Source of the DNA: Nitrospirota bacterium
GTDB taxonomy: Bacteria; Nitrospirota; Nitrospiria; JBHHUU01
Assembly (NCBI GenBank): GCA_046753905.1
Contig: JBHHUU010000001.1
Coordinates: forward strand, 1 to 52,475
Reading direction: 5' to 3'
DNA length: 52,475 nt
Part shown: in pieces, positions 3,350-25,432 of the stretch
Layout: every line of letters begins with the position of its first letter
Numbering within the stretch: the stretch's first letter is position 1
Program-made: the position numbers and the translations under genes
Notes under the pieces: model-generated
Seen by the model: only the letters and a program-made list of their open reading frames with translations
What the model was told of the DNA's origin: nothing
The model's database searches: none

Positions 3350-3451
3350 AACCTATTGGAATTACTACACTTTATTTAGTAATAAAAGTGTCTATAATTA
3401 TGCTGAATGGTTACGTCTGGCTTAGGATATTTTCTATCTCTGTTTTTGGGT

Positions 3452-11267: not shown

Positions 11268-11451
11268 GTAACTATTCAGCTAATACAGAGCAAGGGTTCC
11301 AAAGACTTTATAATGCGTATGATTATAATAAGTTTATTAAGATACAACAGCATCATTTCAGATCAGGTCTCTATGAGTAGTGAGACCTAATCGCTAAGGT
11401 GACGCTATAAACTCTTTCCCACCCCTCACCCTGTAACAACTGAATAGTTAC
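11268..11451 (+). mobile_element. MITE-like repeat, full copy (184 bp)
   Basis: Terminal inverted repeats gtaactattcagctaatacagagcaaggg / ccctcaccctgtaacaactgaatagttac. About 90 percent identical to the copies at 16526 and 24377. Confidence 0.85.
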
Positions 11452-13718
11452 ATATTATTTAAGCGTTTTCTTGCCTTTTCTGCAAATTCTTTATACCTCT
11501 CATCCTTATCCGCTAACTTTAAGAATTTCTCATAATAGATTATCGCCTCATCTAATTTGTCAGCAGAATCCAATGTATATGCAAGATTATACAATGCCTC
11601 AGGATAATTAGGTTTTCTCTTTAATGCCTCCTTATACTCCTTTATTGCCAGTTCAGATCTGCCCTGTTTGTAGTATATCACACCCATATTATAATAGGCT
11701 ATAGTTCGAGCAGAATCATTCCTTATACTATCTTTGAACTCCTTTAATGCCATATCCAGATTACCCTGTTCAAAATAGATAAGCCCAAGATTATAGTGGG
11801 CATCGGCAATATCTGGGTCAAGCCTCAATGCCTTCTTATATGCATCTATGCTTAGATCGATCCTGCCTGTCCTTTTGTAAAGAATGCCCAGTGTATTATA
11901 AACAAGGGGAGCATTCGGAAATATCTCAATAACTCTCTTATATTCATCAATCGCCATATCCCATTTCTTCTGGTCCAGATAAATAGACGTCAGAGCATCA
12001 CGGGATAGAAAATGATATGGATTTATGGATAATGCCTTTTTATACTCATCAATAGCCTTATCCATATTACCCTGACGCTGATATATTAATCCTATTCTAT
12101 AGTGTGCCTCATAGAATCCCGGCGCAACACGTAAAGTATCACGATATTTATTTAAGGCAGAGTCTATATCTCCCTTGTTAAAATATGCCATACCAAGGTT
12201 GTAATGGGCAAAATAGAATTTTGGCAAAAGCTCTATTGCCTTTTTGTATTCCTCAATAGCCATATCGATATTCCCATTTCTGGCATAATTAAGTCCCAGG
12301 TCACTATGCACGGTACTGGAATCGGGTGTCTTTTTTAGATTGTCACTCCAGAAGAGAATAGGATCCTTCCACAGATTATTCCTCTGAACAGTCCATACAG
12401 ACTGTGTGAGAATCAAAATTATAGGGAAAGAGCAGTACGCAGTAAACAGCAAGTAATTATGTGGAGATGATCTGTATCTGAATTTAATCATATCTGCTAA
12501 CTTTACAATCCCTATAGCTGCTATTATAAAGAATCCTATGGAAGGCAGATATAACCTGTGCTCAAAGACCAGCCATAGCCGTATTACAGTAGACTCTATC
12601 ACAAGGTTTAAGAAAAACCATAGTATAAAAAAGGAGATAACAGTCCTTCGCTTATATATGTATATACCATACCCTATTATACCAAAGATTATAAGCATAC
12701 AGATAAATGTACTGACTGGATTGAACAGGGAATGGGATACAGAAAACTCGTATATAAGTCTTAATCTTGATGGCAATGGTAATAATAATAGAGTTATGTA
12801 ATATATTACTACTCTGAATTCAGTAATCAATCTCTGTAAGGCAGTAAATTCCTGTTCTATGCTCCGTGCTGCCATCAAGCCCTTTATCCCCTTTATTATA
12901 CCTTTTTGACTACCTGCACCTATATATATAAACCCTATTACAATAAAGGATATGACCATTATAATAAAATATGGACATGCCTTTTTTATCTTTTTGAGAT
13001 CAAACCGGGCAAAAAAGTATATCTCATAGAGGATTATTATTAACGGTAATGTGATTGTGATCTCCTTACTTCCAAAGGCAAGAAGGGCGAAAAACAGAGA
13101 AGTCAGAAGCCAGAAGTTAGAAGTTAGAAGTCCATCTGACTTCCCTTTGTTCCTGACTTTTGACTTCTGACTCCTGTTCCATGATACCCTTCCCTTCACA
13201 TAACATAATAGTGACAGTATATAAAACATCGTTGCCATAGATGTTGCACGCTGAACTATATATGTTACTGCCTGAGTCTGAACAGGTGATGTCGACCAGA
13301 GAAGGGCGGCAATTATGGCTATCCAGAAGGGTTTATCTCGAAACTCGAAACTCGAAACTCGAAACTCTTTTATTCTCTGCCCCCTTATCTCCAGTGTTAT
13401 CTTCAGAAAAAGATATAGACTAATAGTAGTAATTATATGAATAATAATGTTTACAATGTGATATCCTGATACATCAAGACCTCCAAAATAGTAATTTATG
13501 GCAAAGGTTATGTTAGTAACCAGACGACGGACGGAGTCATTATTAAAGATACCCTTCATAAACCCATCTGGAGAGAGTGTAGTTATCTTGATGAATATAT
13601 TATCTACTATAATCGCATAATCATCAAAATAAAATGGGACATCAATGGTATTAGAATAAAGGATTATCACAATAACAGGAATTATTAATAAAATTATCTT
13701 GGGGAAAGATTGTTTCAT
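11448..13718 (-). CDS. Membrane GT-C-like / TPR-repeat protein (TMTC/PMT-like putative glycosyltransferase), paralog 1
   Basis: About 450 aa with 10 or more TM helices, followed by about 9 TPR repeats. Paralogous to the adjacent gene. The stop codon lies inside the MITE terminus. Confidence 0.7.
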   Translation of the reverse strand: MKQSFPKIILLIIPVIVIILYSNTIDVPFYFDDYAIIVDNIFIKITTLSPDGFMKGIFNNDSVRRLVTNITFAINYYFGGLDVSGYHIVNIIIHIITTISLYLFLKITLEIRGQRIKEFRVSSFEFRDKPFWIAIIAALLWSTSPVQTQAVTYIVQRATSMATMFYILSLLCYVKGRVSWNRSQKSKVRNKGKSDGLLTSNFWLLTSLFFALLAFGSKEITITLPLIIILYEIYFFARFDLKKIKKACPYFIIMVISFIVIGFIYIGAGSQKGIIKGIKGLMAARSIEQEFTALQRLITEFRVVIYYITLLLLPLPSRLRLIYEFSVSHSLFNPVSTFICMLIIFGIIGYGIYIYKRRTVISFFILWFFLNLVIESTVIRLWLVFEHRLYLPSIGFFIIAAIGIVKLADMIKFRYRSSPHNYLLFTAYCSFPIILILTQSVWTVQRNNLWKDPILFWSDNLKKTPDSSTVHSDLGLNYARNGNIDMAIEEYKKAIELLPKFYFAHYNLGMAYFNKGDIDSALNKYRDTLRVAPGFYEAHYRIGLIYQRQGNMDKAIDEYKKALSINPYHFLSRDALTSIYLDQKKWDMAIDEYKRVIEIFPNAPLVYNTLGILYKRTGRIDLSIDAYKKALRLDPDIADAHYNLGLIYFEQGNLDMALKEFKDSIRNDSARTIAYYNMGVIYYKQGRSELAIKEYKEALKRKPNYPEALYNLAYTLDSADKLDEAIIYYEKFLKLADKDERYKEFAEKARKRLNNM
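11473..11975. repeat. 503-bp direct repeat, copy A (3' end of TPR paralog 1)
   Basis: By line-by-line comparison it reads identical to 13771-14273. Confidence 0.9.
13098..13172. repeat. In-frame palindromic heptamer array inside TPR paralog 1
   Basis: (agaagtc agaagcc agaagtt agaagtt agaagtc) catct (gacttcc ctttgtt cctgact tttgact tctgact). It is 75 bp, or 25 codons, and is absent from paralog 2. Confidence 0.85.
13337..13367. repeat. (CTCGAAA)x4.4 tandem repeat inside TPR paralog 1
   Basis: ctcgaaa x4 plus ctc. It encodes EFRVSSFEFRD on the minus strand. Confidence 0.9.
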
Positions 13719-15974
13719 CTATCGTTTTTTATACAGGCGAGTTTTTTTTCCTATTTTAAGCTGTTCTTTAGCCTTTTCTGCAAATTCTTTATACCTCTCA
13801 TCCTTATCCGCTAACTTTAAGAATTTCTCATAATAGATTATCGCCTCATCTAATTTGTCAGCAGAATCCAATGTATATGCAAGATTATACAATGCCTCAG
13901 GATAATTAGGTTTTCTCTTTAATGCCTCCTTATACTCCTTTATTGCCAGTTCAGATCTGCCCTGTTTGTAGTATATCACACCCATATTATAATAGGCTAT
14001 AGTTCGAGCAGAATCATTCCTTATACTATCTTTGAACTCCTTTAATGCCATATCCAGATTACCCTGTTCAAAATAGATAAGCCCAAGATTATAGTGGGCA
14101 TCGGCAATATCTGGGTCAAGCCTCAATGCCTTCTTATATGCATCTATGCTTAGATCGATCCTGCCTGTCCTTTTGTAAAGAATGCCCAGTGTATTATAAA
14201 CAAGGGGAGCATTCGGAAATATCTCAATAACTCTCTTATATTCATCAATCGCCATATCCCATTTCTTCTGGTCTGTATATATCCTTCCTAATTCTATATA
14301 CGAATAGATATTATCCTTGTATCTCTCTTTTAACAATTTATATACCTTGACAGCCATATTAATATCCTCTTTTTTTTCATATAGCATGGCAAGGTTAATG
14401 TATGCCTTAATTTTTGAGGGATCACTTCTTATTACCTCTATATATTGCTCAATGGCAGGTTCTGTCTCCTCTGTCTCTTCATATATCTGTGCTAAGTTAT
14501 TATGTGCTGTAGTATAGTCGGGATCTATCTCTATAGCCATCTTGTATTCTTTAACAGCGGAATCTATATCTCCATGACTATAATAATGTACTCCTAATTC
14601 ATTATGAGGATCACTCAAATAGGGTTCCTTTTTTATATTATCTCTCCAGAGGAGAGATACATCCTGCCAGACATAATTTCTTTGTATAGTCCATAGAGAC
14701 TGTATAAAAATGACAGCTATTATAATGATGCAGTTGGCAGCAGGCAGCAGGCAGTCAGGGAGAGATGAAACAGTTGAATTTTTTCTGTACTTTACCATCT
14801 CTGTAAACTTTACCATACCCACACCAACTATAACAAAGAATCCTATGGATGGCAGATATAATCTGTGCTCAAAGACTAAATGTAATCTTGTTATTAGAGA
14901 TTCTATCACAAGGTTTAAAAAAAACCAGAGCATAAAAAAGGAGATAACACCCCTTTTTCTAACTATAGACAAGGCATATACAATTAATCCGAGAATAATA
15001 ACAATGGCTGGGATAGTGGTAAGAGGATCAAATAATGAATGTGAAACAGGAAAATTATATAGTACCCTGAGTCTTGAAGGCAGAGGGAGTATAAGTAGCG
15101 TTATATAATAAATAATTACCCTGAATTGAGTTAAAATCCTCTCTCCTGCTGTAAATGCCTGCTGTTCAATGTTACTTACAGGTGGTTCTGTTAATCTCTT
15201 TAAGGCACTAATAATCCCTTCATCCATATACAGGTGACTGAATATAAGGACAGATACCATAATAATACCTGTAAAATAGATTGCCCTTTTCCTCATCCTT
15301 TTAGTGTTAGATTGTGTAAAAAAGTATATCTCATACAGGATAATTACAAAAGGGAGTGTGGCTGATATCTCCTTACTCCCAAAGGCAAGAAAGGCGAAGA
15401 CAGTAGACAGTAGATAGTAAAGAGCAGGGTGACCCCTGCCACCTGATATCCTTCCATTCACATAACATAGCAGCGACATCATATAAAACATAGTTGCCAT
15501 AGAGGTTGCACGTTGAACTATATATGTTACTGCCTGTGTTTGTACAGGAGATGTTGACCAGAGGAGGGCAGCAATCATACCTATCCAGAAAGACCTGTCC
15601 GAAATACAAGGGTCTTTTGTTTTCTGCACCCTCATTTCCAGAGTTATATACAGAAACAGGTATATTGTAATCGCAGTAATTATATGAATAATAATATTTA
15701 CAATGTGATACCCATACACCTCAAGTCCTCCAAAATAGTAATTTATGGCAAAGGTTATGTTAGTAATTGGACGATTACGGGAGATAGAACTATTATGGAC
15801 TATATTTTTTAATGTATAGACTGAAATATCTGTCAGATGGATTGCATTATTATCAACAATATTTCTTATATCATCATAGAGGAAAGGACTATAGAGTGAA
15901 TTTAGATGGATTATAGATATAAGGATTGTGATAAATGATACTGCAACGATATGTTTTTTCTTTATATTATCCAC
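13719..15974 (-). CDS. Membrane GT-C-like / TPR-repeat protein, paralog 2
   Basis: Same architecture as 11448-13718. Conserved N-terminal blocks (TNITFAINYYFGG, LLWSTSPVQTQAVTYIVQRATSMATMFY). Identical C-terminal stretch of about 167 aa. Confidence 0.7.
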   Translation of the reverse strand: MDNIKKKHIVAVSFITILISIIHLNSLYSPFLYDDIRNIVDNNAIHLTDISVYTLKNIVHNSSISRNRPITNITFAINYYFGGLEVYGYHIVNIIIHIITAITIYLFLYITLEMRVQKTKDPCISDRSFWIGMIAALLWSTSPVQTQAVTYIVQRATSMATMFYMMSLLCYVNGRISGGRGHPALYYLLSTVFAFLAFGSKEISATLPFVIILYEIYFFTQSNTKRMRKRAIYFTGIIMVSVLIFSHLYMDEGIISALKRLTEPPVSNIEQQAFTAGERILTQFRVIIYYITLLILPLPSRLRVLYNFPVSHSLFDPLTTIPAIVIILGLIVYALSIVRKRGVISFFMLWFFLNLVIESLITRLHLVFEHRLYLPSIGFFVIVGVGMVKFTEMVKYRKNSTVSSLPDCLLPAANCIIIIAVIFIQSLWTIQRNYVWQDVSLLWRDNIKKEPYLSDPHNELGVHYYSHGDIDSAVKEYKMAIEIDPDYTTAHNNLAQIYEETEETEPAIEQYIEVIRSDPSKIKAYINLAMLYEKKEDINMAVKVYKLLKERYKDNIYSYIELGRIYTDQKKWDMAIDEYKRVIEIFPNAPLVYNTLGILYKRTGRIDLSIDAYKKALRLDPDIADAHYNLGLIYFEQGNLDMALKEFKDSIRNDSARTIAYYNMGVIYYKQGRSELAIKEYKEALKRKPNYPEALYNLAYTLDSADKLDEAIIYYEKFLKLADKDERYKEFAEKAKEQLKIGKKTRLYKKR
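13771..14273. repeat. 503-bp direct repeat, copy B (3' end of TPR paralog 2)
   Basis: Reads identical to 11473-11975. Confidence 0.9.
14731..14758. repeat. Heptamer array (GCAGNNG)x4 inside TPR paralog 2
   Basis: gcagttg gcagcag gcagcag gcagtca. Confidence 0.75.
15398..15418. repeat. Heptamer array (AGACAGT)x3 inside TPR paralog 2
   Basis: agacagt agacagt agatagt. Its reverse complement is the same unit as the array at 47963. Confidence 0.8.
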
Positions 15975-16352: not shown

Positions 16353-16525
16353 TCAATGCACAATACCCGTGCAAATTTATCCTTTCCCGTGCGGTTTCTG
16401 AATTATTATTCCTATTTGTATTGAAATTGTCCACAGTTTGACTACATTTTAATTAAGGATGTAGCAAAAAGATGGGGATGGCTTGTGCCTACTGTTGACA
16501 TGACCGAATATTTCTATCCTACTTC

Positions 16526-16710
16526 GTAACTATTCAGCTAATACAGAGCAAGGGGTTCCAAAAACTTTATAATGCGTATGATTATAATAAGTTTATTCAA
16601 ATAGAACAGCATCATTTCTGATCAGGTCTCTATGAGTAGTAAGAGCTAAATACTAATGTGACGCTATAAACTCTTTTCCACCCCTCACTCTGTATTAACT
16701 GAATAGTTAC
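16526..16710 (+). mobile_element. MITE-like repeat, full copy (185 bp) with 8-bp target-site duplication
   Basis: Flanked by cctacttc on both sides (16518-16525 and 16711-16718). Terminal inverted repeats as in the other copies. Confidence 0.9.
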
Positions 16711-16720
16711 CCTACTTCTA

Positions 16721-17671
16721 TTATTTTAAATGCTTATTATACTCCATGTCAAACCACATTGCAAAGAAGAGACATTGGAGACCTGATATGGTCAAAAATA
16801 CTGAAAATAGGGCGCTGGTTGCAACTACACTGTTTCCTGATAATCTTATGTATACAAGAAATGACCCGAATCCTACACCTACAGGAAATAATAAAATGCC
16901 GAGTGCATAGAAAAATACTAAGGGGTGAAAGTCTCTGATTACATACTTTTCAAACATCCTCCTGAAAAACCCCTTTATCAATAAGAATGAGATAGCAGGA
17001 ATTACTCTCCATAATCTTATGCCTGATTTTTCCCCAATATTGTATACTGGCCTGACAGATACATCCCTGACCCTGAAATTACTGATATTCAGTTTTATCA
17101 ATATGTCATTCGGCATACCGTATCTCTTATATATTGAGTCAATATCTATTGTCTTCAGTGCATCAAGGGATATCGCTGTATATCCTGTCTGAGAGTCGGC
17201 TATGTGCCAATAACCAGAGGCTATCTTTGTCAATAAGGATAGGACTGAGTTTCCAAGATATCTGTAGTGGGGGATCATCTTCCATGATTCTCCCCTGAAG
17301 AGTCTATTCCCTTTTGTGTAATCTGCATTTCCATTTGCCACTGGTTCTATTATCCTGTTAAGGTCATTCGGGTCCATCTGGGCATCACCTGCCATTACAG
17401 CCACTACATCTAATTTTTCATCTATCGCCCTTTTATAGCCTGTTGTAATAGCTCCACCCACCCCCATATTCTTTTCATGCCTTATAAGGATCAATCTTTT
17501 CTCTTTATCCTTTTGATACCCTTGTACAACTCTATATGTGTTATCAGAGCTGCAGTCATCCACTATAATAATGTTATCTACAAAAGACGGCATGGTCTCT
17601 ATGACCTTTTTTATTAATATCTCTTCATTATATACAGGTACTACAACTCCTATCTTTTTCTTTTTATACAT
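16721..17671 (-). CDS. Family 2 glycosyltransferase, polyprenyl-phosphate sugar synthase-like (DPM1/ArnC-like) with C-terminal TM helices
   Basis: IGVVVPVYNEE, VDDCSSDNT and AGDAQMDP motifs. Two to three C-terminal TM helices. Confidence 0.75.
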   Translation of the reverse strand: MYKKKKIGVVVPVYNEEILIKKVIETMPSFVDNIIIVDDCSSDNTYRVVQGYQKDKEKRLILIRHEKNMGVGGAITTGYKRAIDEKLDVVAVMAGDAQMDPNDLNRIIEPVANGNADYTKGNRLFRGESWKMIPHYRYLGNSVLSLLTKIASGYWHIADSQTGYTAISLDALKTIDIDSIYKRYGMPNDILIKLNISNFRVRDVSVRPVYNIGEKSGIRLWRVIPAISFLLIKGFFRRMFEKYVIRDFHPLVFFYALGILLFPVGVGFGSFLVYIRLSGNSVVATSALFSVFLTISGLQCLFFAMWFDMEYNKHLK

Positions 17672-24155: not shown

Positions 24156-24376
24156 GTAAGTATTATTTTTATATATGATTTTTCCCTCCTTTATTCATTT
24201 TATTTCCAACTACCCCTGTTTGTCAACCTGAAAAATATACCTCAAAAGTGATATTTATTCCATCCTAACCCTTTTATCCATGAGGCATTTTCTGTTCTTG
24301 AGGCTTTTTGTCCTCTGTTTTTGGGTACTTGCTTGTGGTTTATTATATATGTTAATATTCCGTATCTTAAAATAGA

Positions 24377-24561
24377 GTAACTATTCAGCTAATACAGGGT
24401 GAGGGGTTCCAAAGACTTTATAATGCGTATGATTATAATAAGTTTATTCAGATAGAAGAGCATCATTTCATATCAGGTCTCTATGAGTAGTGAGACCTAA
24501 TCGCTAATGTGACGCTATAAACTCTTTTCTACCCCTTACCCTGTAATAGCTGAATAGTTAC
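24377..24561 (+). mobile_element. MITE-like repeat, full copy (185 bp) with 8-bp target-site duplication
   Basis: Flanked by aaaataga on both sides (24369-24376 and 24562-24569). It ends 22 bp upstream of the HDOD gene start. Confidence 0.9.
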
Positions 24562-24583
24562 AAAATAGATAAAGAGGGAAGAT

Positions 24584-25432
24584 ATGGATATCTCTATTGA
24601 AAATATGATAATGGAAAAGTGTAATCTGCCTCCAATTCCTCCAGTTGCCAGAAAAGTGATGGAAGTTGTAGATGACCCAAACATTACTTCAGATGCTTTA
24701 AGTGATGTAATCAGTCGTGATCCTGCTTTAACGGCAAGGATTATAAATATAGCTAACTCCCCATTTTACTGGTGTTCTAGAACCATAGATACTTTGAAGT
24801 CAGCAATAATAGTCATAGGTTTTAATACTATAAGAAATCTTGTAATAGCTATATCAAGTAAAGAGATATACAAGACCCATGGTCTAACTGAGCAGTTGTT
24901 ATGGGAGCATTCAATGGGTGTAGCTGCATCTGCAGGATTAATAGCCATAGAGTTGAAGATGAAAGATAGGGAAGAGGCATTTATTGCAGGTCTATTACAT
25001 GATATCGGTAAGATCGTATTATTAAACTCTGACAGAAAGGGATATGAGGATATTATTAGAACTGCCTATAACGAAGACATCCCATGCTGGGGCATTGAGA
25101 TGGAGAGATATAGGTTTTCCCATGCTGAAGTAGGGGCAATAGTTATAAATAAATGGCATTTTTCTCATCAACTGGAAAGTATCATTAGATATCATAATGA
25201 TATCATGTCATATAAGGAAAAGAATGAACATATAGAGATAATGATTTCTATTATTCAGCTTGCAAACCTTATATGCAACTCCCTTGGGATCGGGAGAAGA
25301 AAGCCTGATAGTAATATTGATATTATTAATACCCCGCCAGTTAAGAGATTAATGCTTAATGAGGAGGCAATAAACTTACTTATTGAGAAGACTACAGACT
25401 CATTTGAGAAGGAAAAGAAATTATTTGAATGA
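24584..25432 (+). CDS. HDOD-domain signalling protein
   Basis: LPPIPPVARKVMEVVDDPN...ISRDPALTARIINIANSPFY, and later GLLHDIGK, are characteristic of HDOD. Confidence 0.8.
   Translation: MDISIENMIMEKCNLPPIPPVARKVMEVVDDPNITSDALSDVISRDPALTARIINIANSPFYWCSRTIDTLKSAIIVIGFNTIRNLVIAISSKEIYKTHGLTEQLLWEHSMGVAASAGLIAIELKMKDREEAFIAGLLHDIGKIVLLNSDRKGYEDIIRTAYNEDIPCWGIEMERYRFSHAEVGAIVINKWHFSHQLESIIRYHNDIMSYKEKNEHIEIMISIIQLANLICNSLGIGRRKPDSNIDIINTPPVKRLMLNEEAINLLIEKTTDSFEKEKKLFE

Follow-up and report, generated by a model that had tools for sequence, protein, structure and literature searches.

Elements of the IS66 family are defined by ends that start with GTAA and by 8-bp direct repeats (PMC11946415). 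One of them, ISDge4 of Deinococcus geothermalis, belongs to the ISBst12 group, possesses a single ORF, is bounded by GTGACTACTCAGCA and GTAACTGCTCAGCA, is flanked by an 8-bp direct repeat and has been demonstrated to transpose in a copy-and-paste manner (PMC12898284). Among miniature elements, MITECca01 of Cardinium is present in 169 copies and has an IS982 parent (PMC9769881), while no published MITE derived from IS66/ISBst12 was found in our literature search.

The repeat analysed here, 185 bp in length, lies in a stretch of 52,475 nucleotides (the window, contig JBHHUU010000001.1, contig 1 of assembly GCA_046753905.1) from the MAG of an uncultured Nitrospirota bacterium whose genome comprises 2.45 Mb in 273 contigs with 37.7% G+C. 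It resembles ISDge4 and the ISBst12 group in its type of end (GTAACTATTCAGC here, compared with GTAACTGCTCAGCA and GTGACTACTCAGCA) and in the 8-bp direct repeat, but it is without transposase, measures 185 bp instead of about 1.5-1.9 kb, has 46-nt inverted repeats and an inner part matching no full-length element found, and reaches a copy number far above that usual for the IS itself. With type II MITEs such as MITECca01 it shares a short, non-coding and TIR-bounded structure with a target duplication of fixed length, the restriction of its resemblance to the parent IS to the ends, an expansion in one lineage, a mostly intergenic location and the disruption of other mobile elements. It differs from MITECca01 in that the parent family here is IS66 (ISBst12-type) and in that only fragments of the parent are found, whereas intact parents persist in Cardinium. 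Mobile insertion cassettes with IS ends are also comparable: a 526-bp element without transposase in another genome of the phylum (L199, G168:C113:2640-3265) has the same 13-nt ends (GTAACTATTCAGC) and an 8-bp perfect duplication, GATTAATC. The only gene in it encodes a 127-aa PD-(D/E)XK_3 protein (PF13366, 140 bits), which makes this element a mobile insertion cassette belonging to the same IS66-type superfamily; the element of the window, unlike such cassettes with their passenger gene, holds no gene.

Four places in the window carry the repeat, and their coordinates as given in the preliminary description were all found correct on re-alignment. The copy at 1-54, on the minus strand, is cut by the contig edge and retains the 5' end of the element, the remainder lying outside the window; it is 96% complementary to 16526-16579 and is therefore in opposite orientation to the others. 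The three full copies, all on the plus strand, are located at 11268-11451 (184 bp, without target-site duplication, 2/8 flank positions matching), at 16526-16710 (185 bp, the copy named in the original finding) and at 24377-24561 (185 bp, with an exact flanking duplication). Over 16518-16718 the layout is cctacttc, then GTAACTATTCAGC, then an end of the GCTGAATAGTTAC type, then cctacttc again, the left duplication CCTACTTC occupying 16518-16525 and the right one 16711-16718. For the third copy, the duplication AAAATAGA (aaaataga) is present at 24369-24376 on the left and at 24562-24569 on the right, and both pairs are exactly as first reported. The identity of about 90% between copies was also upheld in the alignment of the four places when one indel is allowed, and a repeat finder assigned the three full copies to one 185-nt family. 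On the other hand, the inverted repeats, put at about 30 bp in the preliminary description, actually extend over about 46 nt; they are imperfect, the arms being 83-87% complementary within each window copy. In the copy at 16526 the left arm (16526-16571, plus strand) is paired with the right arm (16665-16710, minus strand) at 83% complementarity; the outer 13 nt of the left arm are GTAACTATTCAGC, an end of the IS66/ISBst12 type, and the inner repeat sequence of the MITE is TAATACAGRGYRAGGGG. With up to 3 mismatches allowed, the window contains the 21-nt terminus seven times, compared with no occurrence in 100 shuffles. No ORF of at least 80 aa was found within the window copies, in line with the earlier statement that none encodes a protein. 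The statement that all are intergenic does not strictly hold for 11268-11451, of which the last 4 nt overlap the ORF 11448-13718 on the minus strand.

A blastn census of the assembly returned 287 loci of the 185-bp family, confirming the high amplification suspected from the window. Complete internal copies account for 95 of them and copies truncated by a contig end for 96; the remaining 96 are internal but partial, many of these being split by other small repeats or shortened by internal deletions. Altogether the family occupies no less than 33 kb (1.3% of the assembly). The consensus of the 95 full copies is 185 bp long; copies diverge from it by 6.9% on average (range 1.6-16.8%), and the identity to the nearest neighbour averages 95%. 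Two pairs of copies are 100% identical and lie at different loci with different duplications, which suggests some recent activity, bearing in mind that metagenome assemblers can homogenise repeats. As many as 96 of the 546 contig ends stop inside a copy, usually about 55 nt in, and these breaks look like an effect of the assembler's k-mer. Logan contigs (SRR29324594 and SRR29324593) that encode the same flanking proteins stop after about 30 nt of the element and confirm the junctions; no empty site was seen in them, and the junction of 16526-16710 is also present in an independent Logan assembly contig. No copy of the element was detected in 40 class-level relatives, which consequently offer no orthologous empty site, nor was any match obtained in an exact 21-mer search of public genomes, from which the window's own record was possibly excluded.

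The duplications seen in the window recur throughout the genome. Among 85 clean-ended copies, 41 are flanked by a perfect 8-bp duplication and 21 match at 7/8 positions, while perfect duplications of other lengths (2-14) are found in 0-7 copies, and those of length 3 or more in 0-2. The duplicated 8-mers are variable in sequence with 76% A+T, and about one quarter of all copies, including the one at 11268, are without recognisable duplication. Two copies sit inside members of other repeat families whose uninterrupted paralogues hold the 8-mer only once and thus represent empty sites. At C13:9743, ATTTTATC flanks the element on both sides and is single in the uninterrupted paralogues of C74, C152 and C7: the filled site reads cttaATTTTATC, the element (GTAAC...GTTAC) and ATTTTATCattccg, while the empty paralogue in C74 reads CTTAATTTTATCATTCCG. 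The copy at C121:6270 compares likewise with its empty paralogue at C121:5730-5820. Consequently, the signature of transposition recognised in two copies of the window holds genome-wide, and the 185-bp repeat is a real non-coding MITE that transposes with an 8-bp target duplication.

In the ISfinder table, GTAA-starting ends combined with 8-bp duplications indicate IS66, and the MITE carries GTAACTATTCAGC at both ends, that is, inverted repeats starting 5'-GTAA as in that family. The 93-aa transposase fragment of C201 was used to fetch relatives, and 160 loci were obtained from public genomes and metagenomes, the source genomes named in the records including Desulfobacterales, anammox Planctomycetota, Halomonas, Psychromonadaceae and Nitrospirae. 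At 100 of these loci GTAACTATTCAGC, with at most 2 mismatches, delimits a full-length element at its two ends; the length is mostly about 1.72 kb, with a second mode at about 1.55 kb. The outer 13 nt of the MITE are those of both ends of the 100 full-length elements (13/13 nt), so that the search for a full-length IS with shared termini, proposed in the preliminary description, was successful. Perfect 8-bp duplications flank 35 of 94 full-length relatives, with no other length enriched. Their single ORF encodes 470-483 aa and scores 284-311 bits with NCBIfam NF033517, the model for IS66-family transposases (cut-off 180); in the 1.71-1.72-kb elements the same ORF also matches Pfam PF03050 (155-174 bits) and DUF6444. 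The termini, which had not been recognised before, are therefore assigned on their sequence to the single-ORF (ISBst12-type) group of the IS66 family. Across the full-length group, conservation is limited to the outer 13 nt with no consensus further in, and inward of its 13 terminal nt the MITE bears no resemblance to the ends of any full-length element found. The match being confined to these 13 nt, any particular IS can be put forward only as a candidate ancestor of the MITE.

Other arrangements of such ends were also considered. Longer elements with family ends 1.0-3.4 kb apart (C2, C43, C49 and C10) contain ordinary genes or unrelated ORFs and no transposase, and the terminus class GTAACTATTCAGCACAATAATACGC, considered as the end of a full IS, consists merely of right-end remnants of about 130-400 bp. 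Elsewhere, two ISBst12-type termini stand nearly back to back in a Psychromonadaceae MAG (L159:1485-1512, GTAACTATTCCGCCAGCTGAATAGTTAT), and two are in tandem, 1 nt apart, at L200 (G109:C49:64304-64330, GCTGAATAGTTACAGCTGAATAGTTAC); these paired termini may be minimal elements or remnants of end-to-end junctions.

A search of the genome for the IS66 DDE domain (PF03050) identified four places, on C234, C223, C232 and C201, those on C232 and C201 being fragments. The intact IS66-family transposases of C234 and C223 share only about 22-27% identity with the lineage that matches the MITE ends, and tblastn with the full-length relatives detected no intact transposase of that lineage in the 273 contigs of the assembly. 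What is present of the matching lineage is decayed. C201:3131-3499 corresponds to transposase residues 366-482 with 59% identity (PF03050 profile positions 221-283) and reaches to about 30 nt from a GTAACTATTTAGC terminus; C173:2493-2594 holds the last 34 transposase codons and then the end; C179, C22 and C103 hold right-end pieces. At C100:6104-6325, residues 118-192 (56-63% identity) are followed immediately by a 30-nt MITE-type right end, GTAACTATTCAGTTATTACAGGGTGAATGG, a fusion that is either an internal-deletion intermediate or the outcome of MITE insertion followed by deletion. No record of the transposase-fragment ORF was found in other assemblies. Since only decayed pieces of this lineage are present, the parent IS looks extinct or unassembled.

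The C234 locus (L031, 2579 bp) is apparently a full IS66-family element with a transposase frame of 551 aa and with ends GTAATAGTTCAGCC that differ from the MITE end at 3/13 positions. Its left end is duplicated in tandem. The gene for a DruA-like protein (Pfam PF14236, Druantia DruA/DUF4338, 122 bits) precedes the transposase frame and overlaps with it; another copy of this gene, 75% identical, is present at C17:21261-22313.

From the identity of the ends with those of transposase-encoding IS66-family elements, together with the duplications and empty sites, we infer mobilisation in trans and the type of transposase responsible: the 185-bp repeat is very probably a non-autonomous MITE with no coding capacity and with ISBst12-type IS66 ends that is moved in trans by such a transposase. 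A DDE transposase of the ISBst12-type group, supplied in trans, would bind both ends, and the element would be inserted by staggered cuts 8 bp apart, the repair of which would generate the 8-bp duplication. Several master copies would then have amplified to at least 287 loci, with insertions persisting only outside coding sequence and often right against gene ends. The driver may have died out, may have escaped assembly or may be a distant relative that works across subgroups. As the matching lineage is present only as decayed fragments, the family would represent mostly a fossil burst or would be driven by an unassembled or unbinned copy. Another reading is that the MITE superfamily persists after the loss of its own transposase and continues to move through cross-mobilisation by a very distantly related IS66-family enzyme such as the C234 transposase, which is about 25% identical to the matching lineage. 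This reading is judged unlikely; if true, the two 100%-identical pairs would be recent events and the symmetric changes in the arms, described below, would reflect adaptation of the ends to the new transposase.

A structured non-coding RNA gene family or a cis-acting RNA hairpin (terminator or stabiliser), kept for its function and not as a selfish transposon, would account for some properties of the repeat. Over its whole length the element is predicted to form one long hairpin of -29.5 kcal/mol (z = -6.1 versus shuffles), many copies lie within 20 nt of stop codons and a few mirror columns change together: among the 95 copies, positions 16/170 pass from A-T to T-A in 22 copies and positions 22/164 are A-T in 41 copies versus G-C in 39, with few intermediates. 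However, the predicted hairpin is just the two inverted ends, and in the columns paired in the consensus 117 single changes break the pair against 45 double changes that keep it. Unpaired sites (24-25, 62-65, 75-79 and 79-164) are linked equally strongly by mutual information, so that the covariation is explained by inheritance from several master copies or subfamilies. The symmetric arm changes at 16/170 and 22/164 are compatible with such subfamily inheritance; they would also fit a co-adaptation of the ends to one transposase, given that the arms are inverted repeats and that one protein binding both would favour symmetric change, or a homogenisation of the arms. Over the whole window, Rfam returned nothing at gathering score, the best match at E up to 10 being a chance CRISPR-repeat hit of 18.9 bits against a threshold of 35 (E = 1.3), in accordance with the preliminary view that this is not a conserved RNA gene. 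Orientation relative to genes is unbiased, no terminator-like or promoter-like site was seen in the copy examined, and proximity to gene ends is expected with a mean intergenic region of about 110 bp. With insertion demonstrated by target duplications and empty sites, an RNA function as the reason for the family is very unlikely. That description had named a genome-wide lack of flanking duplications, or a match to a known RNA family with covariation, as what would speak against transposition; duplications were abundant and no known RNA family matched.

The transposase itself could be of another kind. Duplications of 8 bp are made by several IS families, e.g. ISL3, IS256, IS6 and IS1595, and with no intact cognate IS66-type transposase in the MAG, the MITE could be moved by one of these, its GTAA end being coincidental. 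Yet the ends of the other 8-bp families start with GG and are not known to start with GTAA, both ends of the MITE agree at 13/13 nt with those of 100 transposase-encoding IS66-family elements, fragments of exactly the matching transposase lineage adjoin such ends in this very genome, and no longer element with family ends encodes another transposase. Mobilisation by a different IS family is thus regarded as highly improbable. Being intergenic, palindromic and highly repeated, in a genome where other palindromic repeat families coexist, the element also recalls REP/BIME-like or Correia-like repeats spread by a RAYT (Y1) or an IS630-type transposase. REP elements, though, are palindromes of 20-40 nt that are not known to make target duplications and IS630-type MITEs duplicate TA, while the duplication here is 8 bp long, variable and AT-rich and the ends match IS66-type elements; this origin is given almost no credence. 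Trans-mobilisation by an ISBst12-type transposase accordingly remains the preferred reading.

The ends of the 185-bp MITE are shared by further elements of the genome. The 12-mer GTAACTATTCAG occurs 497 times (up to 1 mismatch) and the exact 13-mer 307 times versus 0 for a reversed control, while among 200 other genomes of the phylum the top counts of the 13-mer are 35, 12 and 9, and 181 genomes have none. Sister elements with unrelated interiors have the same 13-nt ends and 8-bp duplications, as at C10:12612 (118 bp), C166:1985 (122 bp), C53:13262 (78 bp) and C42:7597 (312 bp). Deletion derivatives of 59-172 bp also retain the 13-nt end, and forms down to 59-91 bp keep perfect duplications; these short forms may be mobile, or the deletions may have occurred in place. 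In the window, a sister-family terminus on the minus strand (55-86, GCAACTATTCAGCACTATTTCATG) directly adjoins the edge copy at 1-54, so that this copy apparently landed within or next to a sister element, and a further one is present at 3403-3414 on the minus strand (GTAACCATTCAGCATAATTATAG, starting at 3414). At least two other small repeat families are nested in copies of the 185-bp MITE, often near position 71 (e.g. C74:1201-1295, C6:10395-10498, C152 and C115): an element of about 95 bp running from GTAATTACCCAATATGTTGGGG to GGGAGAGGGTTAGGG and one of about 105 bp running from CCATGAAAATCCCCC to TTAATTTTCATGCTCGGGGGTGAACAA. Several independent small mobile or palindromic repeats are found throughout the genome.

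A crude gene call put the coding share of the genome at about 86%, yet not one of the 80 full copies that could be evaluated falls within an ORF, and orientation relative to the neighbouring genes shows no bias (31:23 in tandem contexts, 46:38 upstream of genes). In the window, convergent genes flank the copy at 16526-16710. The stop codon of one of them, the minus-strand gene 16721-17671, is at 16721-16723, 10 nt from the element and 2 nt from its right duplication (16711-16718). Between the copy at 24377-24561 and the ATG of the downstream HDOD/HD-domain gene at 24584 there are 22 nt, and no sigma-70-like promoter is predicted inside this copy. In the MITE, AAAGACTT has nearly the offset that the AAAGACTTGACA -35 region has in many full-length left ends. 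Donation of a promoter by the MITE was considered and found no support, there being no sigma-70-like site in the copy that precedes the gene at 24584 and no orientation bias.

Five upstream genes, one of them in the window, are terminated by the TAA contained in a GTAAC end. In the window this gene is the 756-aa ORF 11448-13718, which takes its TAA stop (11448-11450, minus strand) from the GTAAC at the end of the copy at 11268-11451. This gene ends in EFAEKARKRLNNM followed by the stop inside the element, while its tandem paralogue ends in EFAEKAKEQLKIGKKTRLYKKR, and its C-terminus diverges from that of the paralogue exactly from the point of the element, which suggests that an insertion or rearrangement truncated the 756-aa gene by 9 residues. 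The absence of a duplication at this copy fits a later rearrangement at the element. The two tandem paralogues (756 and 751 aa) extend over 11448-15974, with the MITE abutting the 3' end of the first; the last 7 codons of the first differ from those of the second, and a 99%-identical block of the two (11465-11764 and 13763-14062) starts 14 nt from the element.

Taken together, the 185-bp family is ordinary in kind, though unusually dense, and leaves the understanding of MITEs unchanged. It accounts for much of the fragmentation of this MAG, and its insertions alter the ends of genes, five of which owe their stop codon to the element; for annotation, several hundred short repeats of an uncultured Nitrospirota lineage can now be attributed to a named source. 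For the IS66 family, the conservation of GTAACTATTCAGC in single-ORF elements from many phyla and its presence around very dissimilar interiors, namely those of several MITE families, of 59-bp minimal derivatives and of the nuclease-gene cassette in another genome, point to a putative transposase recognition site that would be very short in this poorly studied IS group.
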